Assembly (NCBI GenBank): GCA_963722255.1
Contig: CAVRJO010000001.1
Coordinates: 832,001-896,000, forward strand
DNA from: Candidatus Babeliales bacterium
GTDB taxonomy: Bacteria > Babelota > Babeliae > Babelales > JANWKD01
Length of the DNA: 64,000 nt
Direction: 5' to 3'
Below, in pieces: positions 14,896-35,351 of the stretch. Position 1 is the first letter of the stretch; every line of letters begins with the position of its first letter. The translations under genes and the position numbers were made by a program. A model generated the notes under the pieces. The model did no database searches, was not told the origin of the DNA, and saw only the letters and a program-made list of their open reading frames with translations.

Positions 14896-14985
14896 GTTTT
14901 ATGAGCACCACGTTTTAACTCTTTAAAAAGATGCTATACTAAGTAAGTAAAAAATAATTAATTGTGCTTAGTGTAGAGAGCAACC

Positions 14986-16755: not shown

Positions 16756-16764
16756 TTTAATAAG

Positions 16765-16797
16765 AAAGAGACTTGTACTTTTTATACAGGTCTCTTT
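16765..16797. terminator. Bidirectional terminator
   Basis: AAAGAGACTTGTA/TACAGGTCTCTTT stem with one G-U pair, between convergent genes. Confidence 0.7.
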
Positions 16798-16808
16798 AAA
16801 AAAGATTA

Positions 16809-17303
16809 TTATAAATTAGCCTTTTTACTTTGCTTGTTTTTGCTTGCTTTTATTTCGATAAATAGTTTGTAGTTAGGATTAGGCATTGTATCTTCCCATT
16901 TATGAAGTGAAGTTTTTTTTGCCAATGATGGATACATCGTATTGAGTATTTCTATTGCTTGCTTTGCATCATTAATATTTTGAAAATAGAGTTTGCTTTT
17001 TTTAATAGTATCAAAAGAAAGCCCATGTTTGCCTAATTTCCTTATGAGCTCTTTTGCAATTTCATGAGTTTGTGTATCGGCAGTTTTAGTTAGAACGGGG
17101 AATTGTATAATTTCTATTGGTTTTTGTGTTTCAAAGAGTAGTTCATTTTTTACTCTAAAAAGCTCTTCTGCTTTTTCATATAGTTTTTCTGCAGTATTGA
17201 TTATCGTATCTTCTATTTTTTTATACATGCCAAAGTTATTGCAATAAACAAAAAATATTAGGATCAATAAGATATAGTTGTTAATTATTTTCATGAGTTT
17301 CAC
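16809..17303 (-). CDS. Secreted protein with RidA/YjgF-like C-terminal domain
   Basis: Signal-like N-terminus. QT..I..EL...LGKHGLSFDTIKKSKLYFQNIND...PNYKLFIEIKAS follows the RidA pattern. Confidence 0.55.
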   Translation of the reverse strand: MKLMKIINNYILLILIFFVYCNNFGMYKKIEDTIINTAEKLYEKAEELFRVKNELLFETQKPIEIIQFPVLTKTADTQTHEIAKELIRKLGKHGLSFDTIKKSKLYFQNINDAKQAIEILNTMYPSLAKKTSLHKWEDTMPNPNYKLFIEIKASKNKQSKKANL

Positions 17304-17459
17304 CTTGTGGTACTAAATTAAATTTGATTATACTTTCTTTAATTATACCAAATTTATATATAATTATAAATAGTATTATTTTTTTAAGAGCTAAAAAAGC
17401 TCTTAGTATGTAGACAAGTGTAATTGAATGCAAAATTTTAAGGATGAATGCTGAAAAAA

Positions 17460-17873
17460 TTAACTGAAGTTAACAGATTCTGTCAATTTTTTTAATACAG
17501 CATAGTGATTATCTATTTTTGCACATAATTCCTGTGCATTTTCTTCATTGTAAACATGTGTTGTAGCATTACGAATTTCAACGATCTCTAAAAGTTGTTC
17601 TAATTCTTGTTCATTAATTATCTTATTGTTCATACAAGCTTTAAAAACTGTCTTTGATCCTGTGGTCTCTGATCCATATTTGTCAAAGAGATATGCTTTA
17701 TAAAATTTCCATAACATTTCAAAATAAAGTTCAAAATGTTTAATAACAGATGCAGTATATGCTTCTAATTCTGCTTGTGAGGTACCCGGATGTTTTTTAT
17801 AGAGCTCTAAAGCTCGCTCAAAAGCCTTTTGTGATTTTATAAGTGCTTTATATTTATATTCTACTTTTTCCAT
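17460..17873 (-). CDS. HEPN-domain toxin (HI0074-like nucleotidyltransferase substrate-binding family)
   Basis: VIKHFELYFEMLWK and the RX4H RNase motif RNATTH followed by VY. Confidence 0.85.
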   Translation of the reverse strand: MEKVEYKYKALIKSQKAFERALELYKKHPGTSQAELEAYTASVIKHFELYFEMLWKFYKAYLFDKYGSETTGSKTVFKACMNNKIINEQELEQLLEIVEIRNATTHVYNEENAQELCAKIDNHYAVLKKLTESVNFS

Positions 17874-18154
17874 ACTATTCCATCTTTAACTATATTTTGT
17901 TGTAACTCACTGGGTATTGCGTGAAAATCAACAACGTCAGTATTCTGAATAAGATTGAGGCATTCAATCATATTTCTAATTTTTTGGAGCTCAACGATAT
18001 CTATTTTATGATCATTATCGATAGCTATATCAATATCTGACCCTAATTTATTTTCCCCGCGCGCATATGAGCCAAAAAGATATATTTTAGCATTAGGAAA
18101 AAACATACTAATTATAGCAATGATTCTGTTTTTTTGTTGTATAGAATTGTTCAC
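17861..18154 (-). CDS. Minimal nucleotidyltransferase (MNT) antitoxin
   Basis: LFGSYARGENKLGSDID matches GSX10DXD; overlaps the HEPN gene. Confidence 0.88.
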   Translation of the reverse strand: MNNSIQQKNRIIAIISMFFPNAKIYLFGSYARGENKLGSDIDIAIDNDHKIDIVELQKIRNMIECLNLIQNTDVVDFHAIPSELQQNIVKDGIVWKK

Positions 18155-18242
18155 AATGTTCCTTATACTATTTTAAAGTCTTTTCATTATAGAATAAAAA
18201 CAACACATAAAACAATTTTTATGTATGGTAATACAGCTAATC

Positions 18243-18542
18243 TTAGTGTTTCTTACTTTTTTTACGGCGTACAAAAATAGATAATGAGCCAAAAAGGATA
18301 GCAATGAATGCATAAAATAAGATTAGTGTTTTAGGTGCTATACCATACGATTTTAAAATATAGTGTAACAAACTAAATGCAATAAAAGTACCTAGGATAA
18401 TTAAAGTTAATCTTGGGGTAATTATTTTTTTAAAATCCCATCCAAAGATACGTGATGCACAATATGCAAGAATTAGTCCAACTGCTGTCCCTAAAATAAC
18501 GCCTATGATTGATGCAATTGTGTTTAATAAAAGTTGATTCAT
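18243..18542 (-). CDS. Small 3-TM membrane protein
   Basis: Three hydrophobic helices; similar to neighbour (AYCASRIFG vs AYSASKIWG). Confidence 0.7.
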   Translation of the reverse strand: MNQLLLNTIASIIGVILGTAVGLILAYCASRIFGWDFKKIITPRLTLIILGTFIAFSLLHYILKSYGIAPKTLILFYAFIAILFGSLSIFVRRKKSKKH

Positions 18543-18856
18543 TTATTGTTTCCTTTTTTATAATATTTTTTTGCTAAAATGACGAAAAAAATAATAATGG
18601 CTACTGTGTTTACAACTACAAAAACTGTTTGATAGCGCTGTAAGTTTTGTGCAAAACCAAATTTGCGCGCTATTACTTGCAAAACATAGCTAAGCTCACA
18701 ACCAAGAATAATTAAAAAAAATAAATTGAGTGGCTTTCTTATTTGAAACCCCCATATTTTTGAAGCACTATAAGCAACCGCATATATGATTGCTGCAAGA
18801 ATGCATCCTGCTCCTGCCCAAACAAGTAATCCTAGCAAAAAATTGTAGATTTCCAT
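18539..18856 (-). CDS. Small 3-TM membrane protein (paralog of 18243..18542)
   Basis: Three hydrophobic helices; overlaps the next gene; AAGGGA RBS. Confidence 0.7.
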   Translation of the reverse strand: MEIYNFLLGLLVWAGAGCILAAIIYAVAYSASKIWGFQIRKPLNLFFLIILGCELSYVLQVIARKFGFAQNLQRYQTVFVVVNTVAIIIFFVILAKKYYKKGNNK

Positions 18857-20818: not shown

Positions 20819-22072
20819 GTGAAAATTACCAATGTAAAAGCACGTGAAATTTTTGATTCTCGAGGTATGCCAACTCTTGAGTGCCAAATTTTTCTTGACC
20901 ATGATCATTACGTTTTAGCATCAGTCCCTTCAGGAATGTCAAGGGGTATTCATGAAGCAGTGGAACTACGCGATGGAGGATCACGATTATTTGGTAAAGG
21001 TGTTTTAAAAGCAAGTCAGATTATAGAAACGGTTTTTGCGCCGCAACTTATTGGCACATCTCCAGATCTTTTAGTTATCGATACTTTTATGATTGAGGCG
21101 GATGGAACGGTAAATAAAGCAAAGTATGGTGCAAATAGCATGCTTGCTGTAAGTATGGCTGTTGCAAAGGCACAAGCATTGAGTGAGCATATGGAGCTTT
21201 ATGAATGTATAGCGCATCTTTATGGTGCACAAACGGTAATGCTCCCGTATCCGCTCTTTAATGTAATCAATGGTGGCATTCACGCAGATAATAATCTCTT
21301 TTTTCAAGAATTTATGATTTTGCCTATTGGTGGATCAAATTTTCGAGAGTCGCTTGAATTGGGGGCGCTATTTTTTTATGAACTAAAAGTCTTATTAAAA
21401 AAAACAAACAAACCAATTGTATATGGCGATGAAGGTGGAATTGCATCTTCATTTGAATCAGAATATGAAGCACTCGATATGATAACCGAGGTAATAGCGC
21501 GAATTGGCGATGGCAATCTATTTCGTATAGCTCTTGATGTTGCAGCATCCGAATTTTATAATGTTACAACGCACTGTTATGATTTACATGATGAATTCTT
21601 AACATCAGAAGAACTAGTCGCTTTGTATGCTAAACTTATTCAAACATATCCAATTTTCTCAATTGAAGATGGATTAGCGCAAGATGATTGGCAAGGATGG
21701 ATGCATATGAAGAGCGTTTTGGGTGACACTATTCAGCTTGTTGGTGATGATCTTTTTGCGACTTCTGCTCAAAGAATTAAACATGGCGTTATGGTTGATG
21801 CCGCTAATGCTGTCATTATTAAACCCAATCAGGTGGGAACGATTACTGAAACATTGCAAACTATTCAATTTTGTTTCGAACAGGGTTTAAATACTATCAT
21901 CTCACATCGATCCGGAGAAACAGAAGATACTTTTATTGCTGATTTAGCCGTAGGAACAAGTGCAGGTCAAATAAAAGCCGGTGGTCTTTCTCGTTCAGAG
22001 CGGCTTGCAAAATATAATCGTTTATTACGCATTGAAGATACGTTGTTATCAAGTATGTTGCTCGATGTTTAA
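20819..22072 (+). CDS. eno: Enolase
   Basis: AREIFDSRG, ELRDG, GDEGG, LDVAASE, VGDD, IKPNQ, SHRSGETED, RSERLAKYN. Confidence 0.97.
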   Translation: MKITNVKAREIFDSRGMPTLECQIFLDHDHYVLASVPSGMSRGIHEAVELRDGGSRLFGKGVLKASQIIETVFAPQLIGTSPDLLVIDTFMIEADGTVNKAKYGANSMLAVSMAVAKAQALSEHMELYECIAHLYGAQTVMLPYPLFNVINGGIHADNNLFFQEFMILPIGGSNFRESLELGALFFYELKVLLKKTNKPIVYGDEGGIASSFESEYEALDMITEVIARIGDGNLFRIALDVAASEFYNVTTHCYDLHDEFLTSEELVALYAKLIQTYPIFSIEDGLAQDDWQGWMHMKSVLGDTIQLVGDDLFATSAQRIKHGVMVDAANAVIIKPNQVGTITETLQTIQFCFEQGLNTIISHRSGETEDTFIADLAVGTSAGQIKAGGLSRSERLAKYNRLLRIEDTLLSSMLLDV

Positions 22073-24445
22073 GGGAGCTTCATGCTCTGATAAAGGATTT
22101 TCTTGTCCTCGTATCAAATCTTCAAGTTGCCGTATTTTATCACGTTCTTCGCTATGAATCTTGCCAGGGATTGGAACTTCAGGTCTTTCTGCAATATAGT
22201 CATCAATAACATCATGCGCAAAGTTAGGGTCAGGCTTGAAGAACCAACGTGTAATTGGATCACGTAAATCTTCAAAATTTGAAGACTCTTGAAGATTATT
22301 TTCAGCATAGCACAATTTGCTTTCTGTATAAGGATCATAACCACCACCCAGTCGAGGTTTAATGATTTTGGGACAAATAAAAATCATTAAGTTTGTTTTT
22401 ATTTTCACCTTGTTGCGACGCTTGAAGAACCAACCAAATAAAGGAATCTGACTCAAAAATGGTGTATCGTTTTCAATAGTTTGATCACTAATTTTAACCA
22501 GTCCTCCTAAAGCAAGCACCTCACCATCACCTACATTGGCATTAGTTTGCACCAATCGTGTTGCGCGATTGTTTGCGCTACTTAAAAATTCGTTGACGGT
22601 AATGTTGATTTGAAGATTAATATTTTTTGCACCTTCGCTGATGGTAGGTAAAATATCAATCGCAGTTGCAGCAGTAACATATTCATTTTTTACGGTAATG
22701 GATCCGCCATCACTATTTGCTCCACCAGGTAAAAAACGCTGTTGAGCAAGAGAAATTGTTGCTTGCTTGTTGTCCATAGTTGTAATAAACGGTTGTGTTA
22801 ATATGGTAGTATTTGCGTACTTATCTAAAATTTGTAAAATATTCCAAATTCCGCTTCCATTTGGGTCATTAAAAGAAATTATTAGTGAACCAGGTGTTGA
22901 TTGATTTGCAAAGTTGGCCGTACCATCTAGCTGCAAAAGATTTGCCATCAATGCATTTGCAGGAAATTGATTAACAGTTTGACCAAGTTCATTGGTAATT
23001 CCAGCGGCTGTAATAATTGGGGTTGTAAGATTTGCCGTTTGAAAATTAATGTTATCTGAGACGCTTGTGTTAAAACCACTTTTGTTACGCATTTGCGTTC
23101 CAACGATTTGGTTTTTTTGTGACGTAAGATCAACAACTAAAACTTCTATTGCTACCTGTGGTTGAGGCGTATCAAGTTCTTTTATTAATTTTTTTATACG
23201 TATCCAATCTTCTTTACGTGCAGCAACGAGCAAACGGTTGCCTCCTTGTTGTACGCCTTCTGATTGTGCTGCCTCCGGTTGTCCCTCTACAGCCGTAGGA
23301 GCAATTGTTGCAGCAATGCTTGTTTTTTCAGCTTCAACAATAACATCTTGAAAATATCTACGAGGGCCGGCAGAGACTTGCCCTTGTGATTGAGCTGTGG
23401 TGTCTTGTTTGTTAACTAATTGTTGCAATATGGGAGCAAACTCTTCTGCATTTAAATATTGTAGATCATATAAATGTAGTATTGATTTTCCTGAATCAAG
23501 AGGATGATCGATATATTTTACAATGAATTCTTTAACAATATGAATAGACCGTGTTGTTCCCATAATTACAATGGTGTTTGTGCGATCTAGCGCAAGAACC
23601 TTGGTGTTCGGTGGAAAATAGGTGCTTGATTTTATGGGTGCTTCGCGTGCAACACCCGGAGTAACAGGTACTTGTGCTGTTGCAAGAAGCTTTTTGAATA
23701 GCTCTTCGATAAAAGTTGCTTGCACATGAAATAGAGGAATTACTTGAATATCGTCAGGAATCCCTTCAAGATCAAGTTGTCGAATTATCGTCATTGCAGC
23801 ACGTATGATATTTGATTTATCAATAAGGATCAATGCATTTGTTTTAGCATCAGTTTTAATGACCGCAGTAGGTGAAAGCATTCCTGTTGGTGCTTTTAAA
23901 ATTTGATCTAAAGGACTATTAGGATCGGTAACTTTTAAATTAGAAAGATAAAATACTGCTTGAATGACTTGTCCAGTTTCCGGCAAATCTTCTAAAGGAG
24001 GATTTATATAGAGTGGAAGTGGTTCACGTTGAATGTTTTGATCGATTTTTAAAAGAGTCAATTGATCATTTTTAAGTTCCCAACTATAACCAATAAAATC
24101 AAGAATTCTACCTAGTTCTTGCCATGCTTGATCGAGTGTAACTTTGTAGGGAAGTGAAAATTTAACTTTTGCTGAAAGCGCTTGGGACCCCTGAGGTAAA
24201 AGCACATTGACTTTCTTTTCTGCTGCGAGTTCATTAATGATGTCTATGAGAGCAACATCTTGATAGTTAAATGAATATTTCTTTTCAAAACTTTTTGATT
24301 CAGGTTGCTCTTGAGTAACTGATTCTAAGGTAGGTTTTATATTGAGTTTTTCCTCAAGTAGTTGTTTTATTGATTCTTCAGGTTGCGCATCAACCTTGAC
24401 AAAGGTATTCAATAAAAGGAGCATTAAAACTATTTTTAAAACCAT
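22049..24445 (-). CDS. gspD: Type II secretion secretin GspD (copy 2)
   Basis: Signal peptide, N0/N-domain repeats (LQYLNAEE), LDTPQPQVAIEVLVV, ALGGL, TPFLSQIPLFGWFFK, NLMIFICPKII. Confidence 0.9.
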   Translation of the reverse strand: MVLKIVLMLLLLNTFVKVDAQPEESIKQLLEEKLNIKPTLESVTQEQPESKSFEKKYSFNYQDVALIDIINELAAEKKVNVLLPQGSQALSAKVKFSLPYKVTLDQAWQELGRILDFIGYSWELKNDQLTLLKIDQNIQREPLPLYINPPLEDLPETGQVIQAVFYLSNLKVTDPNSPLDQILKAPTGMLSPTAVIKTDAKTNALILIDKSNIIRAAMTIIRQLDLEGIPDDIQVIPLFHVQATFIEELFKKLLATAQVPVTPGVAREAPIKSSTYFPPNTKVLALDRTNTIVIMGTTRSIHIVKEFIVKYIDHPLDSGKSILHLYDLQYLNAEEFAPILQQLVNKQDTTAQSQGQVSAGPRRYFQDVIVEAEKTSIAATIAPTAVEGQPEAAQSEGVQQGGNRLLVAARKEDWIRIKKLIKELDTPQPQVAIEVLVVDLTSQKNQIVGTQMRNKSGFNTSVSDNINFQTANLTTPIITAAGITNELGQTVNQFPANALMANLLQLDGTANFANQSTPGSLIISFNDPNGSGIWNILQILDKYANTTILTQPFITTMDNKQATISLAQQRFLPGGANSDGGSITVKNEYVTAATAIDILPTISEGAKNINLQINITVNEFLSSANNRATRLVQTNANVGDGEVLALGGLVKISDQTIENDTPFLSQIPLFGWFFKRRNKVKIKTNLMIFICPKIIKPRLGGGYDPYTESKLCYAENNLQESSNFEDLRDPITRWFFKPDPNFAHDVIDDYIAERPEVPIPGKIHSEERDKIRQLEDLIRGQENPLSEHEAPLNIEQHT

Positions 24446-24454
24446 GGTTATTTT

Positions 24455-25021
24455 TTACTCCGATTTCTGTAATTCTTGCTTTGGTTCTAGCGTAGCAATC
24501 GTAATTTTTACGTTAATAGCTTGAGGTTTTTTTGCTTTTTCTATTTCAAGTTCTTTTGTATAAATTCTTTCTTCTTGTTCAATAGCATAGAGCAATTCAC
24601 TTAATTTTTTTGTATTCAAGTTAGCAAGATTCGCGTAAAGTGTCCATTCGGTATATCCATCAAGCACGTCTTTAGGTAATGTTTCCGGTTCTTGAGCCTT
24701 GTTTGAAGCGATGCCCAACCTTTCAAGAAGATTTTCAAAATATTGTGCAATTTTAAAACTTTTATCTTTTGCTAAAATTGTATTTACTTCTACTTGTTGC
24801 TTTTTGACACGTTCATAGCGTTCAAGCATATTTTGAACATCTTTTCTTTTTTTATTTATAGCACTAATTTTTGATTTAAGCTGTCCTGCAGAGCGATAGT
24901 AGGTAACAATAAGAAGCCCTAAAAGTAGTATAATGCAACTTAAAGCGATCAGAGCATATTTTTTAAAATCTTTTGCATCAAGAGTATCAAGATAATTTTT
25001 AATGCTGAGGATGAAGTTCAT
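24455..25021 (-). CDS. gspM: GspM/PilO-like inner-membrane platform protein
   Basis: Single TM, coiled coil, and a ferredoxin-like C-terminal pattern; immediately after the gspL-like gene. Confidence 0.65.
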   Translation of the reverse strand: MNFILSIKNYLDTLDAKDFKKYALIALSCIILLLGLLIVTYYRSAGQLKSKISAINKKRKDVQNMLERYERVKKQQVEVNTILAKDKSFKIAQYFENLLERLGIASNKAQEPETLPKDVLDGYTEWTLYANLANLNTKKLSELLYAIEQEERIYTKELEIEKAKKPQAINVKITIATLEPKQELQKSE

Positions 25022-26652
25022 TGTTCATCTCCATTTTTTTTCAATGGTAACGTAATGATAAATTTTGGAGCTTGCAGACTTGCAATAGAACTAAACAAAT
25101 TTGATCGTTTAAGTTCTTTTTCTAATATTTTTAAAGCATCAAAATCTCGAACTTCACCATCGAGTATAATATTTCTTGGTTCCTCAGTGATGCTTAATTT
25201 TTTTAGATTAAGCCCGGTGGCTTCGCGATCAATTGCTGCAGTAAGATCTTGCAAGTATTTCAAAAATGAAAAACGCGTTTGGCTTGAGAATGCAAACCAA
25301 ATTGTTTCTTCTTGTTTCACTTTTTCTTCAGATTTTTTTAATGCTTCAGTCAAGGATTTTGCGGTCGTTAATCCACGGTGTTTAAGCGTGGAAACAATTG
25401 CGATTTCATAATTTTTTAAGGCTTTTTTGAGCGTTCCCAGTTGCCAATAGGTATAAAAGAGAATACCTGCAAAGGTGAGCACAATAAGCGAAAGCGCAGT
25501 AAAAAGTTGTCGATAAAAAAGCCCTGAATCAACAATTGAAAATTCATGTCTTCTTAAATTAAAATTTTCAACAGTTGGGGTAATAAGCGCTGTACTTAAA
25601 CTTAAGATGGAAGACTGAGGGATTCTGTTTCCACTTTTTAAGGTTATGAAGTCAGTTTTTAATAGTTCATTGCTATCAAAAAGGTTACAGGTGATTCCTA
25701 ATTGTTGTGTAAAAAATTGTGGTAGGTTAGCAATATCAGAACCTTGGCCTAAAAGAAGAATCTCTTTTATCTTATTTTCAGTTTTAGTTTGCGCCGTAAA
25801 AGAATCAAGAGTGAATTTAATTTCATTTAAGAACGATGATAATGCTTCTTTGATTGCATCATTAAAGGGTTGATCATTATTGTGATTAAAGCCAAACCTA
25901 ATAATTTTTTCTAAGGCATCATTTGAATTTATACTATTTTTTTGCGCTACTTGTTTAGCCCATTGCAACAATCCTTTTGCAAGTGTTCGTACAAGAGTTA
26001 ATTTTCCATCTACAATGAAGGCGATGCGTGTTACATTAAAACCAATATCAATGAGCGCATAGTTTCCTGTCGCGTCTTTATATTTTGGAATGCATTTATA
26101 AAGTCCATAAAGATCAAAGAGATCGACCGTAATGGTTGTAGGACTTACACCTGCTTGTTCAAAATAGCTTATATGTTCTGCAATATGTTCTTTTTTAACT
26201 GCTGCAGCTAATATAACCGATGATTGTTGTGCAGGATTGCTTTGAGTGATAATAAAATCGATAATGGTTTGGTTAATGGGAAAAGGTAAAAAGGGTTCAA
26301 TTTCGTAATTGATAACCATGCTAATTTTTTCAGGATCTGAAAAAGGAAGTGTTAATTCTTTGAATATAGCAATTGAGCTTGAGATGGATGTTCGTAATGC
26401 ATCATAGCGATCAACTTTGGTTAAAATAGTAGCAATGGTTTTAGAAACGCGTTCAGCATAAGGAGCGGTTGCTTCTAATTCTAAAGGCTGATCGATGAAC
26501 TTTTCGAGCGTAACTTTTTTCCCATGTAATAAGAGTTGTGTAACATGAATAGTTGTTTTACCTATATCAAAGCCTAAAATTCGCTGTTTAACCAGATAAT
26601 ATGAACCTACTTTTTTGGGGATTAAAACATCAGTAATTAAGCGACCAATCAT
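25018..26652 (-). CDS. gspL: GspL / PilM-PilN-like protein (actin-like cytoplasmic domain, TM, periplasmic domain)
   Basis: ILGFDIG and ALIDIGFNVT actin-fold motifs, LTLPF, C-terminal IILDGEVRDFDAL; lies between two secretins. Confidence 0.8.
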   Translation of the reverse strand: MIGRLITDVLIPKKVGSYYLVKQRILGFDIGKTTIHVTQLLLHGKKVTLEKFIDQPLELEATAPYAERVSKTIATILTKVDRYDALRTSISSSIAIFKELTLPFSDPEKISMVINYEIEPFLPFPINQTIIDFIITQSNPAQQSSVILAAAVKKEHIAEHISYFEQAGVSPTTITVDLFDLYGLYKCIPKYKDATGNYALIDIGFNVTRIAFIVDGKLTLVRTLAKGLLQWAKQVAQKNSINSNDALEKIIRFGFNHNNDQPFNDAIKEALSSFLNEIKFTLDSFTAQTKTENKIKEILLLGQGSDIANLPQFFTQQLGITCNLFDSNELLKTDFITLKSGNRIPQSSILSLSTALITPTVENFNLRRHEFSIVDSGLFYRQLFTALSLIVLTFAGILFYTYWQLGTLKKALKNYEIAIVSTLKHRGLTTAKSLTEALKKSEEKVKQEETIWFAFSSQTRFSFLKYLQDLTAAIDREATGLNLKKLSITEEPRNIILDGEVRDFDALKILEKELKRSNLFSSIASLQAPKFIITLPLKKNGDEQ

Positions 26653-29474
26653 CCGACAACCTCCTTAGTTTCCGGTAAAAAATCTGTGATCGACTGTTTC
26701 CTTTTGAGCGTTTTCTGATTTTTAAGCTTTGCTTGTGCGATTGAAGCTATTTTTGTTTCATCAGGAGAACCATTTTGTTTATTAGTAGTACAAAGAGGTA
26801 TACATTCTGTAGTAGCTCGCTTTCTAATTGGTGCATATTCACTTTCAGGACATTGGCTGATTGGTTGGCATGGACGAGGATTTTCAGGTTCACAAAGTTG
26901 TGTTACATGATCATCCGGCCCTGGAGGACAACAGCGACATCCTCCAATACAATCGGCGTAATTATTTGGACACACAAGAGGAGGACATATTGCTGCCATC
27001 TGCGCAGCGATAGAATCTTCTTCATATTCCTGGCCCGTACGGCAGTTGTATGCAAGTGGCATTGAGCAAGCGCTTACATTATTGATATAGTTTTCAACGA
27101 TTTCTGTATTTTCGCATGGCGTATCTTTGAAGAACCAACGATGAATAGGATCTCGCTGTTCAGAACAATCCTTCATAGAGCACATAACGTCTTCAGCTTC
27201 CGAAGCTTTCTTTTCAGTGTATGCGCTCATCCCACCTTGAGGACGTGGTTGAACTATTTGTGGAGAAATAAAAATAATTAAATTGTCTTTTAATTTATTT
27301 TTATACTTATTTTTAAAGAACCAACCGAATAATGGTATGCGTTGCAAAAGTGGCACACCATTCTGAAGCTCGTTAATATTGTCTTGTATAAGTCCACCAA
27401 TTGCTAAAATCTCATTGTTGGCCATATTTGCATTAGTTTTAACCGTTTTTGTATCTTTAGTAGGGTTTATTGCATCGGCATTAGTGAAGGTATCAAGACT
27501 TATTTCAATAGCAAGATTAATAATGCCGCTGCTGTTTATTTGCGGTGTGATAGCAACCGAAAGATTAGCCGATACGTCGCCAAGAGTATTCTGAACAGGT
27601 CCTGCACCGGTTACTGTTCCCGTAGCAACACGACGGGTTTCACCAACAGAAACTTGCGCTGTGTATTTATTGGTGGTTGTTAAAAATGGATGCGATACAA
27701 CGCTGGTATACGCATAGGTTTCAAGCGCTTGAAAGAGCGCCCAAACGCCACCAACTAAGCTGCTGCCTATTGAAATTAATGTTGTCCCGGGGTTAAATCC
27801 TGTTGCTAAACTAACCAGATTGCCCATGAGGCCCCCCGCAGGATCAGTAACGATCGAAGTCTGAAGTCCAGGAACGCCTAAGCCAGAGGTTTGAAATGCA
27901 ATATTATCAGTAATTCCAAGTGTGTCTAAACGCTTATTGCGAATTTGTGTTCCAAGAGATTTAATTTTGTTAACAGCAACATTAACAATGAGTACTTCAA
28001 TCGCAACCTGCGGTTGTTTTACGTCCAATTTTTTTATGATTTCTTCTACTTTTAAGTAATCATCTTTTTCTGCTTTGATTAACAGTTTATTTCCCGAAGG
28101 TTCAGCGATAAAGGTCATTGGGCGCAAAAATTTATCTCCATCAAGAACTCCACCATATTTAGCTGCAACACTGCCTGGTGCAAAATTTGTAACTTTGCTT
28201 AAAATTGCAGCCATATTTTCAGCATTCGCATATTGCAATTTATAAACATAAAGAGGCGAATAAGGCTGCTTGAGGGAAGTGTCAACATATTCAAGAATGA
28301 AATTTTCAACTTTTTCTATACCTTCTCTAGTTCCCAAAATGATTAAGGCATTTCCACGAGGCTCAGCAAATAATCGAGTATCTTCAGGAAAATAGATGGA
28401 TGTTGATTGCTTTTTTTGACCAAAGAGCCTTGTTGCTATGGTAGATTTTTCTTCGGTAGATACGAGATTATCATAGAGTGCTACGACATCTTGGGCGTTT
28501 GCATGTTTTAGTTTTAAAACAGACATACCTTCTGGCATGCTAACGCTATCAAGTTCTGAAATGATTGACATGAGGGAACGAATATTGGCTGCTTTATCGG
28601 TAAAAATTATCGCATTTAAGGCATTGAAAGTTTGAACAATTGCTGTTTTGCTTTTAAGATCTTGAACGAGATTGGCAAGGTTTGCAGCAGGACCATTTTC
28701 AACAAAATAGACGTAGCGAATTTTAGTATCATTGTTTGGCAATAATTTCCAATTTATTCCAACAAATGCAGGCAAAGCTGCTTGATTTGCAATATCTAAG
28801 GGAACTACATTGTATGAGTCGGGAAAATTATTGGTAAAATGAGTAGGTACGAGCGTTAATCCAAAAAGATCAAGAAAGTTTAAGAAAAGATCCCAAACAT
28901 TTCGTTTGCTCATGGGCTCATGTGTTCTATACGTTATTAGGTTTCCTGCGACTTTTCCTGCCACAGGTGGATTGATTGCATCACCGGTAAGAAATTTAAC
29001 TTTAAAAATAGATTCGACCCACCCAAGAAGATTGAGAAGCTCTGTTTTATCAAGATTAACCGATATAGTTTTTTCTGAAGGATTAAATGCTTCAAAAGGC
29101 ATAAGAGATGAAGGGTTTCTTAACAAATGCTCTTCAGTATCTTCTCGCGATTTAAATGATGAAGCAAGATCTTGTTGTGAGATTGAAATGTTTTTGGGAA
29201 TGTCCATTTCATTTGGGACTTTATCTATTTTTTTGGGTTGAGCAGTTTGTGGTAATGGATCTTCAAAGCCTTTATTGTTTCGCTGTAATCGTTCTTGCTT
29301 TGAAACTCTTCTTTTTTTAACGCGACCATTATCTTTTGTGGAACCTGATGAAGATAACGTAGGTTCTGATGCCATAGTGTTGTTCATCGTAGGCAAACAG
29401 AGAAAAATAAGCACCAAGAATGTATTGCCAAGAGCTTTATAATAATTTCTAACGTTCATGTATCTTTTCCACAT
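26649..29474 (-). CDS. gspD: Type II secretion secretin GspD (copy 1) with Cys-rich C-terminal extension
   Basis: LKHANA and LQYANA N-domains, LDVKQPQVAIEVLIV, AIGGLI, VPLLQRIPLFGWFFK, NLIIFISPQIV. Confidence 0.9.
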   Translation of the reverse strand: MWKRYMNVRNYYKALGNTFLVLIFLCLPTMNNTMASEPTLSSSGSTKDNGRVKKRRVSKQERLQRNNKGFEDPLPQTAQPKKIDKVPNEMDIPKNISISQQDLASSFKSREDTEEHLLRNPSSLMPFEAFNPSEKTISVNLDKTELLNLLGWVESIFKVKFLTGDAINPPVAGKVAGNLITYRTHEPMSKRNVWDLFLNFLDLFGLTLVPTHFTNNFPDSYNVVPLDIANQAALPAFVGINWKLLPNNDTKIRYVYFVENGPAANLANLVQDLKSKTAIVQTFNALNAIIFTDKAANIRSLMSIISELDSVSMPEGMSVLKLKHANAQDVVALYDNLVSTEEKSTIATRLFGQKKQSTSIYFPEDTRLFAEPRGNALIILGTREGIEKVENFILEYVDTSLKQPYSPLYVYKLQYANAENMAAILSKVTNFAPGSVAAKYGGVLDGDKFLRPMTFIAEPSGNKLLIKAEKDDYLKVEEIIKKLDVKQPQVAIEVLIVNVAVNKIKSLGTQIRNKRLDTLGITDNIAFQTSGLGVPGLQTSIVTDPAGGLMGNLVSLATGFNPGTTLISIGSSLVGGVWALFQALETYAYTSVVSHPFLTTTNKYTAQVSVGETRRVATGTVTGAGPVQNTLGDVSANLSVAITPQINSSGIINLAIEISLDTFTNADAINPTKDTKTVKTNANMANNEILAIGGLIQDNINELQNGVPLLQRIPLFGWFFKNKYKNKLKDNLIIFISPQIVQPRPQGGMSAYTEKKASEAEDVMCSMKDCSEQRDPIHRWFFKDTPCENTEIVENYINNVSACSMPLAYNCRTGQEYEEDSIAAQMAAICPPLVCPNNYADCIGGCRCCPPGPDDHVTQLCEPENPRPCQPISQCPESEYAPIRKRATTECIPLCTTNKQNGSPDETKIASIAQAKLKNQKTLKRKQSITDFLPETKEVVG

Positions 29475-30598
29475 TATGCTTGATGGTTAAGGAGCATATT
29501 TAAGTTTCTCCTGTCTCGATTTCCATAATTTACCATCTCACGTTTTTGTTGCATTTTCAACTGATCTAATGTTGGCGCAAACTGTTTTTGTTTGCGCAAG
29601 AGGTCAATTTTTTCTGCCTCTATTTCTTGTAATGATTTTTCTTTACCCAATATAGTTTGCGTTTCAACCGTTGGTTCTTCCAACTGTTGCAGTGTATACG
29701 TTATGTTTATTTCTTGTTGATTACGCAGAAGGGTTACTTCGATGGTACTTCCAAGATCCATTGAAATTATTTTTTGATAAATTTCAAAACGCGAATCAGT
29801 TGTTGTAGCGGGTATTGCATTTATTGATTCGATAATATCGCCTGTTTGCAATCCCAGAGCAATTCCAATTGTTTTTGGTTGTAACGTACCAATTCGGCAT
29901 CCAATGCTTTGTCCTTTTTTGTAAACAGTGAATAAATTGAGCGTCTCAATAAGTTCAGCTAAGTTAGGAATCGACTGAATAAATGCACGAGGATCAACAA
30001 GATAATCAAATGGCCCTTTCTTTTGAACAACAGAAGACCAATTTGCTCGTGATTGCATTTGCTGATCGATTTCAGCATCATACTGATTTACATAAAGGGT
30101 CTCTTGTTGGCCATTTGAGCGTACTAAAATAATTTTATTGGTGAAAATTCTTATGAGTTGTGCATCATCGATTCTATCACCTACGATATAGTTTTTCGTG
30201 ATTGAATTCTTACTGTCTTGAATAATGGCAATATTTTCAGATTCATCTGAAAGAGTAATTATTCCCTTAAGAACAATCTGTAAAGGTTCTAAAAACTTAG
30301 GAGGCAATGCAAGAGGGACTTTTACCGGTTGAGGAGTTGGTGGTTCAGGCATAGTAATTTTTTGAACCTCTTTTTCTTCCTCTTTTAATTCCTGTGGTTT
30401 GTATGTTTCAAAAAGATCATTGATATAAATTTTACTTAAATCAATTTTTGAAACAGCTTTTTTCGGTAATTTTATTTCCATTTTTGATGTTAAAGGTACT
30501 GGGGTAGGAACTTTTTGTTGTGAAATAAACATGAACCCTACAATCGTTATGAAAACAATAAAAAGTATATCATTAACGAGCCAAAAGGGATGTTTCAT
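29474..30598 (-). CDS. gspC: Type II secretion protein GspC (HR + PDZ domains)
   Basis: N-terminal TM, LKGII...AII HR domain, PDZ motif LGLQTGDIIESIN; directly upstream of gspD. Confidence 0.85.
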   Translation of the reverse strand: MKHPFWLVNDILFIVFITIVGFMFISQQKVPTPVPLTSKMEIKLPKKAVSKIDLSKIYINDLFETYKPQELKEEEKEVQKITMPEPPTPQPVKVPLALPPKFLEPLQIVLKGIITLSDESENIAIIQDSKNSITKNYIVGDRIDDAQLIRIFTNKIILVRSNGQQETLYVNQYDAEIDQQMQSRANWSSVVQKKGPFDYLVDPRAFIQSIPNLAELIETLNLFTVYKKGQSIGCRIGTLQPKTIGIALGLQTGDIIESINAIPATTTDSRFEIYQKIISMDLGSTIEVTLLRNQQEINITYTLQQLEEPTVETQTILGKEKSLQEIEAEKIDLLRKQKQFAPTLDQLKMQQKREMVNYGNRDRRNLNMLLNHQA

Positions 30599-30727: not shown

Positions 30728-31714
30728 CTATGGCGTAGGAATGGTGTTAAGAATTATGCGAACAATATCATCCGATTCAATTGCTTGACTTTCGGCCTCG
30801 TAGGTCAGAATAATTCTATGTCTTAATATTGGCAATGCTACAGCTTTAATATCATCAGGAGTTACAAAATATCTTTTTTTCAGAAAAGCATGCGCTTGAG
30901 CCGCATTGATAAGAGCAATAGTTGCGCGCGGTGAAACACCATATTTTATCAAGTTTTTGAGTTGATTAAGATTAAATAATTCTGGGGTTCTCGTTGCAAA
31001 GACAAGCGCTATGCAATAATTATAAATTTTTTCATCAATATATATATCTTTAATAAGCCGTTGCTGAGTCAAAATTTCTTCATGAGAAATTTGCTGTGTA
31101 ATGGGCAGTTCAAGATGAGTCTTTTTAACAATCTCTTTTTCTTGTTCCATTGTTGGGTAGGTGACGAGGAGCTTAAACATGAAGCGATCGATTTGAGCTT
31201 CAGGTAGTCGATAAGTGCCTTCTTGTTCTACGGGATTTTGAGTAGCAAACACCAAAAATGGTTTTTCAAGATTAAAGGTTGTAGATCCAATAGTAACTTG
31301 TTGCTCTTGCATTGCTTCAAGAAGTGCTGCTTGCACCTTTGCCGGAGCCCGATTAATTTCATCAGCTAAAATTAAATTTGCAAAAATAGGGCCTTTTTTT
31401 GTTTCAAAATCTTGAGTTTTTTGATTATAAATTAAAGTCCCAATTAGATCTGCCGGAAGAAGATCTGGTGTAAATTGAATTCGTTTGAATGAAAGGCCCA
31501 ATGCTTTTGTTATGGCTTTAATCATAGTTGTTTTTGCAACTCCAGGAACTCCCTCAAGAAGGACATGGCCATTGCAAAGAATGCTTATAAGAATAAAGGT
31601 GATAATATCTTCATGACCAACAATAACTTTGCTTACTTCGTGAGCTATGTTGGTAAATTTTTTTTCTTCTTTAATGTGTTCTGCAAGGGTAACGCTTGAA
31701 ACATGTGCTTCCAT
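30728..31714 (-). CDS. moxR: MoxR-family AAA+ ATPase
   Basis: HVLLEGVPGVAKT, RIQFTPDLLPAD, LADEINRAPAKVQAALLEAM, ATQNP, DRF, SPRA. Confidence 0.95.
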   Translation of the reverse strand: MEAHVSSVTLAEHIKEEKKFTNIAHEVSKVIVGHEDIITFILISILCNGHVLLEGVPGVAKTTMIKAITKALGLSFKRIQFTPDLLPADLIGTLIYNQKTQDFETKKGPIFANLILADEINRAPAKVQAALLEAMQEQQVTIGSTTFNLEKPFLVFATQNPVEQEGTYRLPEAQIDRFMFKLLVTYPTMEQEKEIVKKTHLELPITQQISHEEILTQQRLIKDIYIDEKIYNYCIALVFATRTPELFNLNQLKNLIKYGVSPRATIALINAAQAHAFLKKRYFVTPDDIKAVALPILRHRIILTYEAESQAIESDDIVRIILNTIPTP

Positions 31715-31851: not shown

Positions 31852-33693
31852 CTAGCTTCTCTGCATTCTTTTTGCTCTAACCAAAAGATCTTTTAAGTGA
31901 GCAGCAACTCTTTTTAATTCTTCTAATTGTGCTATGAGTTTATTTGTATTTACAGGAGTTCTTGTAGCTATGCTTCTTTTTCTTTCCTCTTCTTTACGAC
32001 GTTCTTCTGCTTGCGCGCTGCGTTGAGCTTCGAGTTGTTCTTTTTTTCGTTGTTCTTCAAGAGCTTTTTTGCGCTGCTCTTCTTTTTGTTTTTTTTCTCG
32101 TTCTCTTTGCGCTTCTTCTTGCCGTTTACGTTCGCGCTCTCCTTGCTCTCTTCTTTTCCGTTCTTCTTCTAAGCGGCGTTGTTCTTCAAGAGCTTTTTTA
32201 TGCAGTTCCAGTTCTCTTTGGCCTCGCTCTTGTTCAAATTTTTCAATCTTTTCTCTTTCTATACGTTGGGCTTCAAAAAGGCTTGCTTTTTCTTCTTCTT
32301 CTCTACGTTTTTTTCTTAATTCTTCTGCTTTTTTTTCTTCTTCTAGAAGCTTATCAATGAGTTTTGAAATGGCTTTTTCATCTGCTTCTTTTTGTTTGCC
32401 CTTTTGTTCTTTTTTCTCTATTTTTTCTATTAATAGTTTTCTTGTTGCTTTTTCTCTTTCGGCTTGTTTACGTATAGCTTCTTGCATTTCTTCTCGTCGT
32501 TTTTGTCCTTCCTCTGTAGGAGCTTCTTGAGCAGCTTCTTCGATTTGTTGGTAAAAAAGAATGTAACCGTCTTTATTAATCTCTTGTTGGGCTTGTGTCT
32601 CTGTAACCCGATTAAAAGCTGAGTCGTTACATAAATACCATTGATTGTTTAATTTTACATAAGCAACATAATGACCAGAATTTGCAGCAGGTCCTTGATG
32701 ATTAATTGCTGCATAAAGATCATATTTTGTATTCTTTGTGCCTTCTATAAATTTCGTCATACTAAGGATGAAGGGAATTTCTATCTTGTGCGATAATTTT
32801 ATGACATCGCGGTCATTCTTTTCTGGGTCAAAGCCACTTCCAAATCTCAAAAGGTTGATCAACAATATCGGCGATGGTTGCGTTATTTGCTGTTCATAAA
32901 GTTGTTTATTTAGCATCTCGGTCAAACTGGCATAACGCTGTATTTTTGATAGAATCTTAATCCGTCCTTTTGAGCTATAAGCATCTGAAGATTCTCCTCG
33001 TTCTACTTGATTAAAATTTAATATTTCATTACCAGCAAACGTCGGTAGAAAAAGCAAAAGTTGTGGTCGAATATATGGTTCTTCTTTTATTTTGAAAAAT
33101 AAAAGATCTGATATTTTTTTATAGTTTATCGAATCTTCATTGGTGCCTTGTAATGAAGAAATTAATCTATCTAAAAATTCGCTCGCATCTTGTTCTTCAG
33201 CCATTTTTTGAATTTTGTTCAAGAGGATTTTTATTTCTTCAGGATTTTTTTTAAGGGTATTTGCTAATGTTTTGACAAGTTCTGATTCCTTGCCTTGTTC
33301 TTTTCCATATTGTTTCAAAGATTCTTCAAGAGCTCTCTTTAATTCTATATCTTCTATTGAAGATGATTCTTCTTCTTTAATAGAAGGTGATTCGCGTTGC
33401 TCAGTAGTAGGTACAAGGGAAGAATAAAATGTGAATAAAGAAGCATCGATCGCGTGTTGATCATTGAGTTTAATTGAGTTCAATAAGTTTTGAAATTGTT
33501 GTGAGATTGGGTCAGTAAATTGTAAAGTTGGTATAAGCTCTGTCAATGGATTAGTTGCATTAAGCGCTTGAATAATTGCATTGACATAACAGCTGCTCCC
33601 ATAATTTCTTAACTTTGGTGGTTGTGTTTTAATTGAAATTGGAAACACAACTAAAAACAATAAACAACTTACTATCAAAATAATTTTTTTCAT
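31852..33693 (-). CDS. Secreted USP-family (peptidase C19) deubiquitinase with UIM-like insert and long charged helical tail
   Basis: Signal peptide; Cys box LRNYGSSCYVNAIIQAL; EQDASEFL; His box YDLYAAINHQG..NSGHYVAYVK...WYLCNDS; GYILFY; E/K/R-rich tail. Confidence 0.9.
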   Translation of the reverse strand: MKKIILIVSCLLFLVVFPISIKTQPPKLRNYGSSCYVNAIIQALNATNPLTELIPTLQFTDPISQQFQNLLNSIKLNDQHAIDASLFTFYSSLVPTTEQRESPSIKEEESSSIEDIELKRALEESLKQYGKEQGKESELVKTLANTLKKNPEEIKILLNKIQKMAEEQDASEFLDRLISSLQGTNEDSINYKKISDLLFFKIKEEPYIRPQLLLFLPTFAGNEILNFNQVERGESSDAYSSKGRIKILSKIQRYASLTEMLNKQLYEQQITQPSPILLINLLRFGSGFDPEKNDRDVIKLSHKIEIPFILSMTKFIEGTKNTKYDLYAAINHQGPAANSGHYVAYVKLNNQWYLCNDSAFNRVTETQAQQEINKDGYILFYQQIEEAAQEAPTEEGQKRREEMQEAIRKQAEREKATRKLLIEKIEKKEQKGKQKEADEKAISKLIDKLLEEEKKAEELRKKRREEEEKASLFEAQRIEREKIEKFEQERGQRELELHKKALEEQRRLEEERKRREQGERERKRQEEAQREREKKQKEEQRKKALEEQRKKEQLEAQRSAQAEERRKEEERKRSIATRTPVNTNKLIAQLEELKRVAAHLKDLLVRAKRMQRS

Positions 33694-33818
33694 GACCACC
33701 CTCATAAACTTTTACTGATGTTTTAGTTTAGGCATAAAGGTGTTCAATAAGTCAATTGTTGTGAGTGTATTTATAAAATTAAATAAAAACAAAGCTGTAT
33801 ATTTTTATCAATAAATTA

Positions 33819-34610
33819 TTATGATTTTTTTGTTAATCCTGACATTAGTTCAGTTCCCAAAAAAATCCAACCAATTGTAGCAATACTGATTTTCACAGAT
33901 TTTATAAAAGGAGAAGAACCAATAAAATCTTCTGAAGCCATTAAGCGCCATAACGTACCAATCCCAACTGCACCATGAAATGTCGCTAACGCTAGAGATG
34001 TTTTTGGGTTTTTTTGCATGAATGCCTTTCGTTTAGGAGAAATGGCAGGTGTTTCTGCAGCTGTTTGCATTGTTTCATAAAGCCTTTCGGCATAGGCGCG
34101 TATTCCTGGAGTAAGTAACAGACTATTTAAAGCAATGCTGGGATATGCATATTCATCTTGCAAGAGATATTCGTTTTCTTCAAAATTATAATTCCAAACT
34201 GTGGCAGAGCCTTTGGAGTTTGCTTCTTCTTTTAAAAATACTTTGTTGATTAGTGAGGCAATGATTTCTTTATCTTTTTTATATTCTTGAATAATAAATT
34301 TTTTTACAGTTTCATGTTGAATGAATTGTTTTAAATTTATAATTTGTTGAGCATGTTCATCATTAATAAGATATGTGGGAATACAACGAACAATAACTGT
34401 TTTCTTACCTTGATATTCTTCATAAAAACATACATTGTCAGCTAATGATTTTTGTGCTAAAACTTCACCCATTGCGTCATGGTCTCCAAAATGAGTTGTG
34501 AATTCTGTGCTTGGGTTTTGTTGTGATTCTTGCTGTTCCATTGAGTAGCAAAAATTAATTAATGATACTATTGTTAAAAAAAACAGTGATTTTAAATTAA
34601 TTTTTTTCAT
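33819..34610 (-). CDS. Secreted hypothetical protein with C-terminal hydrophobic segments
   Basis: Signal then MEQ; two hydrophobic stretches at the C-terminus. Confidence 0.7.
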   Translation of the reverse strand: MKKINLKSLFFLTIVSLINFCYSMEQQESQQNPSTEFTTHFGDHDAMGEVLAQKSLADNVCFYEEYQGKKTVIVRCIPTYLINDEHAQQIINLKQFIQHETVKKFIIQEYKKDKEIIASLINKVFLKEEANSKGSATVWNYNFEENEYLLQDEYAYPSIALNSLLLTPGIRAYAERLYETMQTAAETPAISPKRKAFMQKNPKTSLALATFHGAVGIGTLWRLMASEDFIGSSPFIKSVKISIATIGWIFLGTELMSGLTKKS

Positions 34611-34613
34611 TTT

Positions 34614-35351
34614 TTACTTGCTCAAAATTAAATCGGTATTATCCAAATGATCTCTTATCTCTGTTGCCCATATAATTGCTATTTTAACATCTTCAATTTT
34701 ATTGTTTTTTCTATTGGTTATGCAAGAAGGCAGGTGTTTTTCGATTCTTTCTTTTGTAAAAAAACCTGAAAGAATAGTAGATAATCCAAAAATAGTTCCA
34801 GCTCCAACTAATTTGAAATCAGTTTCATAGCTGTTAAAACCGAATTTAAAAAAGTAATAACTCGAAATGCCAAGGATGGTAGTAATGCCTCCGCAAAAAA
34901 GTGAATCTATCGCTATTTTTTTAAAAGATTTATTATGTGGGAAATTTGCTTGTTCCCGCAAATAGTTTTGGTATTGCCGTAATCCTTCAAGTTCAATTTC
35001 AGAATTTTCTTGAATATGCTTTTTTTGTCGTATGAAATTATAAGTATCGTTAATTTTTACCAATTTTGTTAAAAATCGCGCTCGTGTTCTGAAATCAACT
35101 AATTCTTCATGAGATTTATTTTCATTATTATCTACAGAGCTTGTTGAAGGAGTTAGTAGAAATTGTATCCAAAAATAATCAAATAAACAATCAAGAAAGC
35201 TTTTATCATTTTTTTGAGTAAGCCCTTTTGCTATTCCTTTTCCTAATTCCTTTCTAAACCCTTTACGAAAATCGTCCATACCTTTTATAGTGATGCATGA
35301 GAGGGATAGTGCAAGGATAATAAAAAAATACTGTATACTTTTGTTTTTCAT
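34614..35351 (-). CDS. Secreted/membrane hypothetical protein with hydrophobic hairpin
   Basis: Signal then MDD; two Gly-rich hydrophobic segments near the C-terminus. Confidence 0.7.
   Translation of the reverse strand: MKNKSIQYFFIILALSLSCITIKGMDDFRKGFRKELGKGIAKGLTQKNDKSFLDCLFDYFWIQFLLTPSTSSVDNNENKSHEELVDFRTRARFLTKLVKINDTYNFIRQKKHIQENSEIELEGLRQYQNYLREQANFPHNKSFKKIAIDSLFCGGITTILGISSYYFFKFGFNSYETDFKLVGAGTIFGLSTILSGFFTKERIEKHLPSCITNRKNNKIEDVKIAIIWATEIRDHLDNTDLILSK

Follow-up and report, generated by a model that had tools for sequence, protein, structure and literature searches.

Here, we describe a gene on the minus strand of a 64,000-nt stretch of DNA from a Candidatus Babeliales bacterium (assembly GCA_963722255.1, contig CAVRJO010000001.1, positions 832,001 to 896,000), hereafter the window. 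Its sequence and a structural model indicate that the gene product is an active-looking, complete eukaryote-type ubiquitin-specific protease (USP, peptidase C19), with predicted deubiquitinase activity. Dependentiae/Babeliales (TM6) are intracellular parasites of protists, and the explanation that we consider best, and on balance probable, is that this USP-type enzyme would be exported by the Sec system, released through a secretin, and act on host ubiquitin or a close relative of it.

The longest open reading frame (ORF) at the locus spans 31852..33705 on the minus strand and encodes 617 aa. A GAGG Shine-Dalgarno sequence lies 6-7 nt upstream of the ATG at 33693, and the proteins start with MK(K/N/R/Q) both in the database gene call (P0002) and in all seven homologues compared. 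Therefore, we take 31852..33693 (613 aa) to be the true gene, exactly as the initial annotation, which was made from the letters of the sequence, had placed it. Residues are numbered below on the 617-aa ORF, which puts each number four above that of the real protein.

The gene product carries a complete USP catalytic domain

A Pfam scan, proposed as a check in the initial annotation, returned UCH (PF00443) as a whole-domain match well over the cut-off, with an E value of 3.3e-31 and 109.3 bits (cut-off 23.9) over residues 32-385 and profile positions 3-254 of 254. No model of NCBIfam, a library for naming bacterial proteins, matched the USP protein. Conservation was read from an alignment of 108 sequences, namely the window protein and single-domain matches from a search of 1.84 billion representatives. 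Four residues (D173, G338, H345 and D361) were invariant in this alignment, and N34, G36, C39, N42, Q46, Q171, R287, Y328, L330, G344, Y346, W356, Y381 and Y385 were conserved in at least 90% of the sequences, indicating that the Cys box, the QDASEF box, the His box and N360-D361 are all in place. The full set of catalytic elements noticed earlier (N..C, QDA.EF, GHY and ND) was thereby recovered. The oxyanion-hole residue N34 and the catalytic C39 both lie within KLRNYGSSCYVNA, and the TGT codon of C39 occupies 33589-33591. The His box contains the catalytic H345 (32671-32673), the aromatic gatekeeper Y346, defined as in PMC10643670, and D361 (32623-32625); these codon positions were obtained by arithmetic and checked against the C39 codon.

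We then considered the predicted fold. An AlphaFold2 model of residues 1-400, built with the 108-sequence alignment, reached a mean predicted local distance difference test score (pLDDT) of 89.4 and a predicted template-modelling score of 0.85, with pLDDT 93-98 in the blocks that hold the Cys box and the His box. This speaks only indirectly to the refuting condition set in the initial annotation, namely a catalytic triad that fails to form in a structural model. The model aligned over 250-265 residues with canonical USPs and showed their thumb-palm-fingers fold. Strands of the fingers region were predicted at 204-208, 211-215, 217-221, 229-234 and 248-251, and because of these strands the protein does not appear to be a fingerless enzyme of the TssM type. 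When the family profile was compared with solved structures, 108 sequences matched, and the best 60 of the 108 were all ubiquitin carboxyl-terminal hydrolases and all eukaryotic, USP2 scoring 3.8e-27. The closest solved folds were the catalytic domains of USP46, USP12, USP7, USP14 and USP2; unlike them, the window protein has a signal peptide, a thumb insert, a charged tail of the Glu/Arg/Lys (ER/K) type and a C-terminal zipper, and lacks cysteines in the fingers. The whole ORF contains only C14, in the signal, C39 and C359, leaving two cysteines in the mature protein and none in the fingers.

A Sec signal alone reaches the periplasm only, and the protein might accordingly be read as a protease of the periplasm or envelope with a bacterial substrate and no link to host ubiquitin. 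We consider this very improbable. The whole USP fold appears to be kept in the model, including the fingers strands that hold ubiquitin, and the gatekeeper of the Gly-Gly channel, Y346, is conserved. Moreover, the family occurs in intracellular parasites, while PF00443 was found in none of 14 free-living control genomes, and we know of no periplasmic ubiquitin-like substrate.

The catalytic domain directly follows a predicted Sec-type signal peptide

The N-terminus has the three regions of a signal peptide, with MKK as the n region, IILIVSCLLFLVVFPI as the h region with a hydrophobic core of 16 residues, and SIKT as the c region. In a direct reading of the sequence, without a dedicated predictor, this order and the small or neutral residues at -3 (I) and -1 (T) agree with the pattern of signal peptidase I sites, and the predicted cut falls between T27 and Q28. 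The mature protein would thus begin with Q28-P-P, in the sequence QPPKLRNYGSSC, and C39 lies 11 residues past the cut, in agreement with the earlier observation that the USP fold starts straight after a Sec-type signal. The same arrangement recurs among relatives: the Cys box stood within 60 residues of the start, behind a hydrophobic N-terminus, in 20 of 35 complete USP ORFs from their genomes. A lipoprotein signal was considered for the lipobox-like IVSC at residues 11-14 and rejected, since only six residues precede it when counted from the start at 33693, the hydrophobic core runs on beyond it, and C14 is not conserved in homologues.

The cut site bears on whether the enzyme would be set free. 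It might instead be tethered, either by an uncleaved signal acting as an anchor or by its C-terminal zipper, which would hold it at the surface of the bacterium or on a membrane protein of the host or the vacuole; we think this rather unlikely. Among the 197 distinct USP sequences collected, 58 carried xPPxLxN in the first 60 residues, and these were used for statistics of the cut site. The residue at -1, before [QKR]PP, was small in 49 of the 58 (A 25, T 10, S 9, C 3 and G 2), which argues for cleavage and against the tether, while Leu, which signal peptidase I sites less typically have there, stood at -3 in 17 of the 58 and fits an uncleaved anchor.

An insert in the thumb carries a UIM-like motif

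Between the Cys box and the QDA box, the window protein has 137 residues, compared with 77-96 in short family members and in the eukaryotic rows of the alignment. The difference reflects an insert in the thumb subdomain, which is missing in the family members P0004, P0008, P0031, P0034 and P0036. Within it, EDIELKRALEESLKQY resembles a ubiquitin-interacting motif (UIM), the consensus of which is an acidic run followed by phi-x-x-Ala-phi-x-x-Ser. The motif reads E118-D119-I-E121-L122-K-R-A125-L126-E-E-S129-L, with L122, A125, L126 and S129 as the core and E118, D119 and E121 as the acidic residues. Among the 3274 ORFs of at least 60 aa in this genome (597,043 aa), the strict pattern [DES][DES]x[DE]-phi-xx-A-phi-xx-S-phi had one match, which is the one in the USP, whereas the bare pattern phi-xx-A-phi-xx-S-phi had 59.

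The homologues were then examined at the same aligned columns. P0006 passed the Pfam cut-off with 22.0 bits and an E value of 1.3e-4, P0003, which is 67% identical to the window protein, gave 14.5 and 13.7 bits, and P0024 gave 13.2 bits. Pfam reported no UIM or UIM_2 match in P0005, P0007, P0023 or P0027, so that one or the other family was reported in four of the eight family members tested and the cut-off was reached in one. A longer piece of the window protein (67 aa) gave no UIM family in Pfam (PF02809 UIM, PF23625 UIM_2). In the structural model, the motif lies at the start of a long helix (120-151), with a pLDDT of 56-72 across residues 101-140; the low values in the N-terminal half of this helix are as expected for a helix that protrudes from the thumb. 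We regard the UIM-like helix as a probable but unproven UIM, and whether it would bind ubiquitin we rate as evenly balanced. The place and the consensus fit given in the initial annotation thus stood, and the motif proved unique in the genome, although this copy remained below the Pfam cut-off.

The motif also bears on the substrate. We consider it improbable that the enzyme is specific for a ubiquitin-like modifier, such as NEDD8 or another Gly-Gly-ended host protein, rather than for ubiquitin. Most USPs are ubiquitin-specific, and the UIM-like element, if real, points to ubiquitin. Against this stand two bacterial precedents, as TssM is described as reacting with NEDD8 probes (PMC10719079), and SnUSP2 and SnUSP3 as reacting with ISG15 probes (PMC10643670).

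A charged tail of variable length leads to a conserved C-terminal helix

The tail that follows the catalytic domain consists of E 28%, K 17%, R 15%, Q 10% and A 9%, with 12.6% hydrophobic residues and a single Pro, and E, K and R together make up 61%. It contains 59 charge pairs at the i,i+4 spacing (30 acid-to-base and 29 base-to-acid), and hydrophobic a/d occupancy was at most 0.20 in all seven heptad registers. Because of this charge pairing and the lack of a hydrophobic heptad seam, the make-up is that of an ER/K single alpha-helix (SAH) rather than of a coiled coil, and with a composition within that described for SAH domains (PMC5347031), the tail is read as an ER/K-type SAH candidate. 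Similar charged tails were present in P0003, P0008, P0031 and P0034, and other family members had 10-60 residues at that place. The tail contains two direct repeats, and P0002, which is the other database version of the window protein (P0001), lacks exactly the 43 residues between them; the length of the tail may therefore vary, unless one of the two assemblies is collapsed.

Beyond the tail lies an amphipathic helix that is specific to the family. Its residues L590, L594, L597, A601, L604 and L608 have the 4-3-4-3-4 spacing of a leucine zipper. The C-termini aligned without gaps in a set of 14 members and in a set of 25 members whatever the length of the linker, and L594 and L608 were invariant in the set of 14. 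Across the family, the USP domain and the zipper are joined by a linker as short as about 10 or as long as more than 200 residues. We also searched the genome with a C-terminal profile of 25 sequences, and the USP was its sole C-terminal match (E 3.7e-4). The idea that the helix is a general sorting signal was consequently rejected for this genome. An earlier profile of seven sequences had, in two cases, weakly matched the C-terminus of an ORF other than the USP in this genome (E 0.078 and 0.59), and a loose regular expression for the helix matched 15 of 35 USPs of relatives and 48 of 564 control ORFs. An ESM Atlas search with residues 560-617 gave no usable match.

These features bear on the tethered enzyme introduced above. 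In that version, the ER/K helix would serve as a leash of about 28 nm (190 residues x 0.15 nm), and the USP head would clear ubiquitin in a shell around the bacterium. The conservation of the C-terminal helix despite such variable linkers, its restriction to the USP in this genome, and a tail that is SAH-like in composition with no heptad pattern all speak for it, as does the description of SAH domains as spacers or a 'dog leash' between functional domains (PMC4183817, PMC4571873). No partner for the zipper was found, which counts against it.

The zipper on its variable charged stalk is the only part of the protein that could be new biology. One may imagine a design with a secreted USP head that has its own reader of ubiquitin chains, a rigid ER/K helix of variable length, and a zipper as an anchor or pairing element; we hold this design to be unlikely. 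If true, the helix would act as a ruler, and ubiquitin would be cleared within a set distance of the anchor, for example the surface of the parasite. Alternatively, the zipper might fold back and dock onto the catalytic domain to activate it, as the C-terminal peptide of USP7 does in that enzyme. In the literature on enzymes of Dependentiae, TM6, Babela and Babelota, supplements aside, we found no description of a UIM-like insert, a charged tail of about 190 aa or a zipper.

USP genes are not uncommon in the phylum, and this one shows no trace of recent transfer

The genome is 1.62 Mb in two contigs, is 93% complete, and encodes one USP. In a first sample, PF00443 was found in 24 of 61 genomes of the order, and in a wider one in 79 of 230 genomes of the phylum with at least 80% completeness, representing 47 of 131 genera. 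The families within the phylum were uneven, with 27 of 35, 25 of 32, 6 of 70, 0 of 15 and 0 of 14 genomes positive. The statement that USPs are uncommon in bacteria, made in the initial annotation, accordingly does not hold for this phylum.

A phylogeny with protist and giant-virus USPs had also been suggested, and in a quick tree of 53 rows the window protein grouped apart from the eukaryotic and viral rows. It paired with P0003 (SH-like approximate likelihood-ratio support 100) inside a clade of 16 rows (99) and a larger clade of 29 rows (97). The larger clade consists of 11 rows from Babeliales genomes, including that of the window, and 18 library rows of the same architecture but without taxonomy, and it holds none of the six eukaryotic, three viral, one Cardinium and one chlamydial rows; the tree is a single quick run with many long branches, and its rows were picked from the best matches. 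The nearest named eukaryotic matches covered 24-30% of the query at E values of 1e-10 or weaker, with the exception of a plant USP20 that covered 91% at 2.7e-6. In the comparison of folds, giant-virus USPs (E about 1e-16 to 1e-17, 13-18% identity) were not better matches than those of eukaryotes. In the ESM Atlas, giant-virus clusters were listed first, at a cosine of 0.85, which is below the level counted as more than a lead. The GC content of the gene region is 0.336, within the range of the window (0.283-0.397). On these comparisons, we rejected the idea that a eukaryote or a giant virus had recently donated the gene. Pattern-based searches for similar loci returned only three viral and five genomic relatives, the patterns being very specific.

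Several other arrangements of USP domains were seen. One Babeliales relative (L129, G033:C17:5000-24999) has a frame of 3751 aa at 7431-18683 with five USP domains and a hydrophobic N-terminus, adjoining a frame of 1884 aa at 588-6239 with one USP domain, and its genome gave 11-14 PF00443 matches. The library proteins P0022, P0025 and P0026 carry 10, 7 and 6 tandem USP domains with periods of about 320, 320 and 307 residues, respectively. Outside the phylum, a contig of the insect endosymbiont Cardinium cBtQ1 (L124) encodes a USP frame of 448 aa that matched the family profile with an E value of 2.4e-48.

The genome of the window was also searched for other families related to ubiquitin. Two tandem ORFs (302 and 307 aa, G000:C2:565227-566351) contain F-box-like domains over the Pfam cut-off, so together with the USP the genome carries both kinds of host-ubiquitin-related genes. 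No OTU, C48 or U-box family was found in the genome; the blanks for OTU and U-box are weak, because the control genomes gave nothing either.

Putative components of a secretin-based machine lie next to the USP gene

Downstream of the USP gene and on the same strand, after a MoxR-type ATPase gene, lie genes for a GspC-like protein, a PilM-like protein and two secretins (Table 1), and the gene is thus indeed beside type II-like components, as had been noted. Both secretins scored better with GspD than with PilQ in NCBIfam, yet under its cut-off. Elsewhere in the genome, we found two T2SSE ATPases and two T2SSF platform proteins. No VirB4, FHIPEP (SctV/FlhA) or TolC-type OEP was found in the 93%-complete genome. 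Of the routes checked, the secretin-based machine is the only route across the outer membrane that was detected.

Table 1. Features of the USP gene and of the genes downstream of it (positions in the window; residues of the 617-aa ORF).
Feature	Position	Strand	Evidence
USP gene, 613 aa + stop	31852..33693	minus	ORF list, Shine-Dalgarno, homologue starts
Sec-type signal peptide, residues 5-27	33625..33693	minus	read from sequence; model helix 4-20
USP (peptidase C19) catalytic domain, residues 28-390	32536..33624	minus	
Cys box KLRNYGSSCYVNAIIQA	33565..33615	minus	N34/C39 conservation; alignment to USP21 Cys box
Insert in thumb subdomain, about residues 100-150	33256..33408	minus	alignment and family sequences
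UIM-like motif, residues 118-133	33307..33354	minus	consensus match, genome-unique
QDASEF box, residues 172-177 (Q172-D173-A174-S175-E176-F177)	33175..33192	minus	D173 invariant, Q171 at least 90%
His box SGHYVAYVK...WYLCNDS, residues 343-362	32620..32679	minus	aligns to USP21 and USP2 His boxes
Glu/Lys/Arg-rich tail, residues 390-580, ER/K-type spacer candidate	31966..32538	minus	composition, i,i+4 pairs
Two 32-nt direct repeats, 88% alike, 129 nt apart	32048-32079 and 32177-32208	minus	within tail
Family-specific C-terminal amphipathic helix, residues 584-612	31870..31956	minus	C-terminus alignments
MoxR-type AAA+ ATPase, next gene downstream	30728..31714	minus	Pfam AAA_3 E 1.6e-65 and AAA_lid_2
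GspC-like protein with PDZ	29474..30598	minus	Pfam T2SSC 33.1 bits (cut-off 27); NCBIfam GspC_delta 78.7 (below cut-off, 150)
GspD-like secretin, 941 aa	26649..29474	minus	Pfam Secretin and Secretin_N; NCBIfam GspD 267.6 and PilQ 141.7, both below cut-offs
PilM-like protein	25018-26652	minus	Pfam PilM_2 E 2.9e-27
188-aa ORF	24455-25021	minus	
Second GspD-like secretin, 798 aa	22049-24445	minus	Pfam Secretin E 2.5e-32

At its C-terminus, the secretin of 941 aa is extended by about 190 residues rich in Cys and Pro, and the cluster of the secretin, GspC-like and PilM-like genes (22049-30598) is kept in a genome of the same genus. Immediately upstream of the USP gene and on the same strand lie the ORFs 33819-34610 and 34614-35351, whose products are hydrophobic at the N-terminus and in C-terminal stretches. 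These two ORFs matched no family in Pfam or NCBIfam, show no relationship to one another and are missing from the USP locus of the same-genus genome. Promoter-like sites at the locus (22, compared with 18.7 +/- 4.6 in shuffles) are uninformative on operon structure, and terminator-like sites numbered 2, compared with 2.5 +/- 1.4 in shuffles.

A route to host ubiquitin, and the points against it

In the scheme that we favour, the Sec system would move the protein across the inner membrane, signal peptidase I would cleave the signal at the predicted site, and the mature protein, with C39 and C359 as its two cysteines, would fold in the periplasm. Release to the outside would most likely proceed through the secretin-based type II machine. 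Since the bacterium in this scheme lies in the host cytoplasm, the outside would be the host cell, where the triad C39-H345-D361 could remove ubiquitin, or a closely related modifier that ends in Gly-Gly, from conjugates of the host. In the thumb, the UIM-like helix would probably add a second ubiquitin contact and thereby favour chains, the long Glu/Arg/Lys tail may act as a stiff spacer, and the C-terminal zipper may be a docking or pairing element.

Several observations weigh against this scheme. First, a type II system cannot cross the host membrane, as stated in PMC10719079, and by this route alone the enzyme would miss the cytosol if the organism were vacuolar. Second, a hydrophobic N-terminus was found by a loose hydropathy measure in 298 of the 564 ORFs of at least 300 aa in the genome, and such an N-terminus therefore discriminates little here. 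This frequency is consistent with Chromulinavorax, in which 44% of the coding sequences, like many putative effectors, are reported to have a putative signal peptide (PMC6561590). Third, the proteins that resemble a type II system scored below the equivalog cut-offs of NCBIfam, and a type IV pilus could be assembled from such parts as well. Fourth, the window copy of the UIM-like motif scored 12.8 bits with Pfam UIM_2 (PF23625; E 0.15), under the cut-off of 21, and a phmmer search of the insert against the PDB gave the tandem UIMs of Vps27 at an E value of 8.2, which is not significant. The motif is also dispensable for the core function, because several family members are without it. Finally, the gene was absent from the RNA runs searched, and three soil-metagenome DNA runs contained 5-6% of its sampled words.

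The position of the gene adds a further point on the same side. A USP was found beside these secretion genes in only one of 39 USP loci of relatives, a locus of the same genus, in flanks of 1.5-10 kb (most of them 1.5-2.5 kb). At that same-genus locus (L095, G001:C1:1140000-1159999), the USP is 33% identical to that of the window, compared with 64-81% for the neighbours, and synteny stops at the USP on the upstream side. This low identity would mean that the USP either diverged very fast or was replaced by a paralogue. In the tree, the same-genus USP, which is identical to P0024, does not stand as sister to the window protein. Because the linkage is local, the position of the gene says little about its function, and we infer the export route from the signal peptide and from the lack of other machines. 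Genetic linkage is no requirement for substrates of type II systems.

Taken together, the favoured scheme is reasonable, and the position of the gene does not strengthen it. The initial annotation was correct in every coordinate, and its interpretation is supported in part. For the proposed effector delivered by a type II system, the intact USP behind a Sec-type signal and the secretin-based machine as the only detected outer-membrane route speak in favour, while the neighbourhood is weak evidence; the claim of rarity fell, as described above. That the enzyme strips ubiquitin from the bacterium or its vacuole, as was also proposed, is purely conjectural.

Comparison with known systems

The core idea is already in print for this phylum as a prediction, since Pagnier et al. 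(2015) predicted three secreted C19 hydrolases in Babela and gave type II as its only secretion system (PMC4378268). These hydrolases share with the window protein the phylum, the peptidase family, a predicted signal peptide and a proposed type II export. They are known from a genome-annotation listing, and the comparison here stays at that level.

TssM of Burkholderia pseudomallei and B. mallei is likewise a bacterial deubiquitinase of the USP type, and its secretion by a type II system has been reported (PMC10719079). It has an Ig-like domain at its N-terminus and is devoid of the entire fingers subdomain, whereas the model of the window protein has fingers strands. SnUSP1-3 of Simkania negevensis are described as 'more conventional' USPs, of which two, SnUSP1 and SnUSP2, show high activity and are promiscuous in linkage (PMC10643670, PMC13720258). 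Like the window protein, they are described as having the full domain, the canonical active-site residues and an aromatic gatekeeper. They differ in being large proteins of a chlamydia-like bacterium with type III and type IV systems, with a predicted type III signal in SnUSP2, and their catalytic domains lie far from the N-terminus (187-522 in SnUSP3), whereas that of the window protein stands directly behind a Sec signal. OtDUB of Orientia tsutsugamushi likewise joins a bacterial deubiquitinase to a separate ubiquitin-binding element (PMC7214410), but it is an enzyme of the CE clan (Ulp1-like) with another kind of ubiquitin-binding domain.

A UIM is combined with a USP domain in human USP37, USP25 and USP28, inside the domain in USP37 and outside it in USP25 and USP28. 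In comparison with USP37, the window protein has a single UIM-like motif, not three, and it is placed between the Cys box and the QDA box. The insert of USP37 lies later in its domain. There is no sign of common descent with that insert, because only a single subclade within the bacterial family has the thumb insert described here. USP37 nevertheless provides the precedent for the earlier remark that some eukaryotic USPs have UIM inserts inside their catalytic domains, and its UIMs are described as acting on the proximal ubiquitin of a chain (PMC6412040). The tandem UIMs of USP25 are described as conferring a preference for K48 chains (PMC5361193).

Reviews, as represented by PMC13720258, name only TssM and the three Simkania enzymes as bacterial USPs, in contrast with this phylum, in which roughly one sampled genome in three has USP genes. 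The window protein is a clean and compact representative of these genes, with a domain of about 360 residues directly behind the signal peptide. Because the domain is compact and the mature protein has two cysteines, expression and assay are expected to be easy. An assay would give the first biochemical handle on how Dependentiae handle host ubiquitin, and would test whether a single UIM-like helix within the domain alters chain preference in a minimal USP. The idea of a C19 hydrolase exported by Sec and a type II system in this phylum dates from 2015, and the gene does not represent a new kind of system; it is a real but ordinary representative of a known kind of enzyme, with some new decorations.

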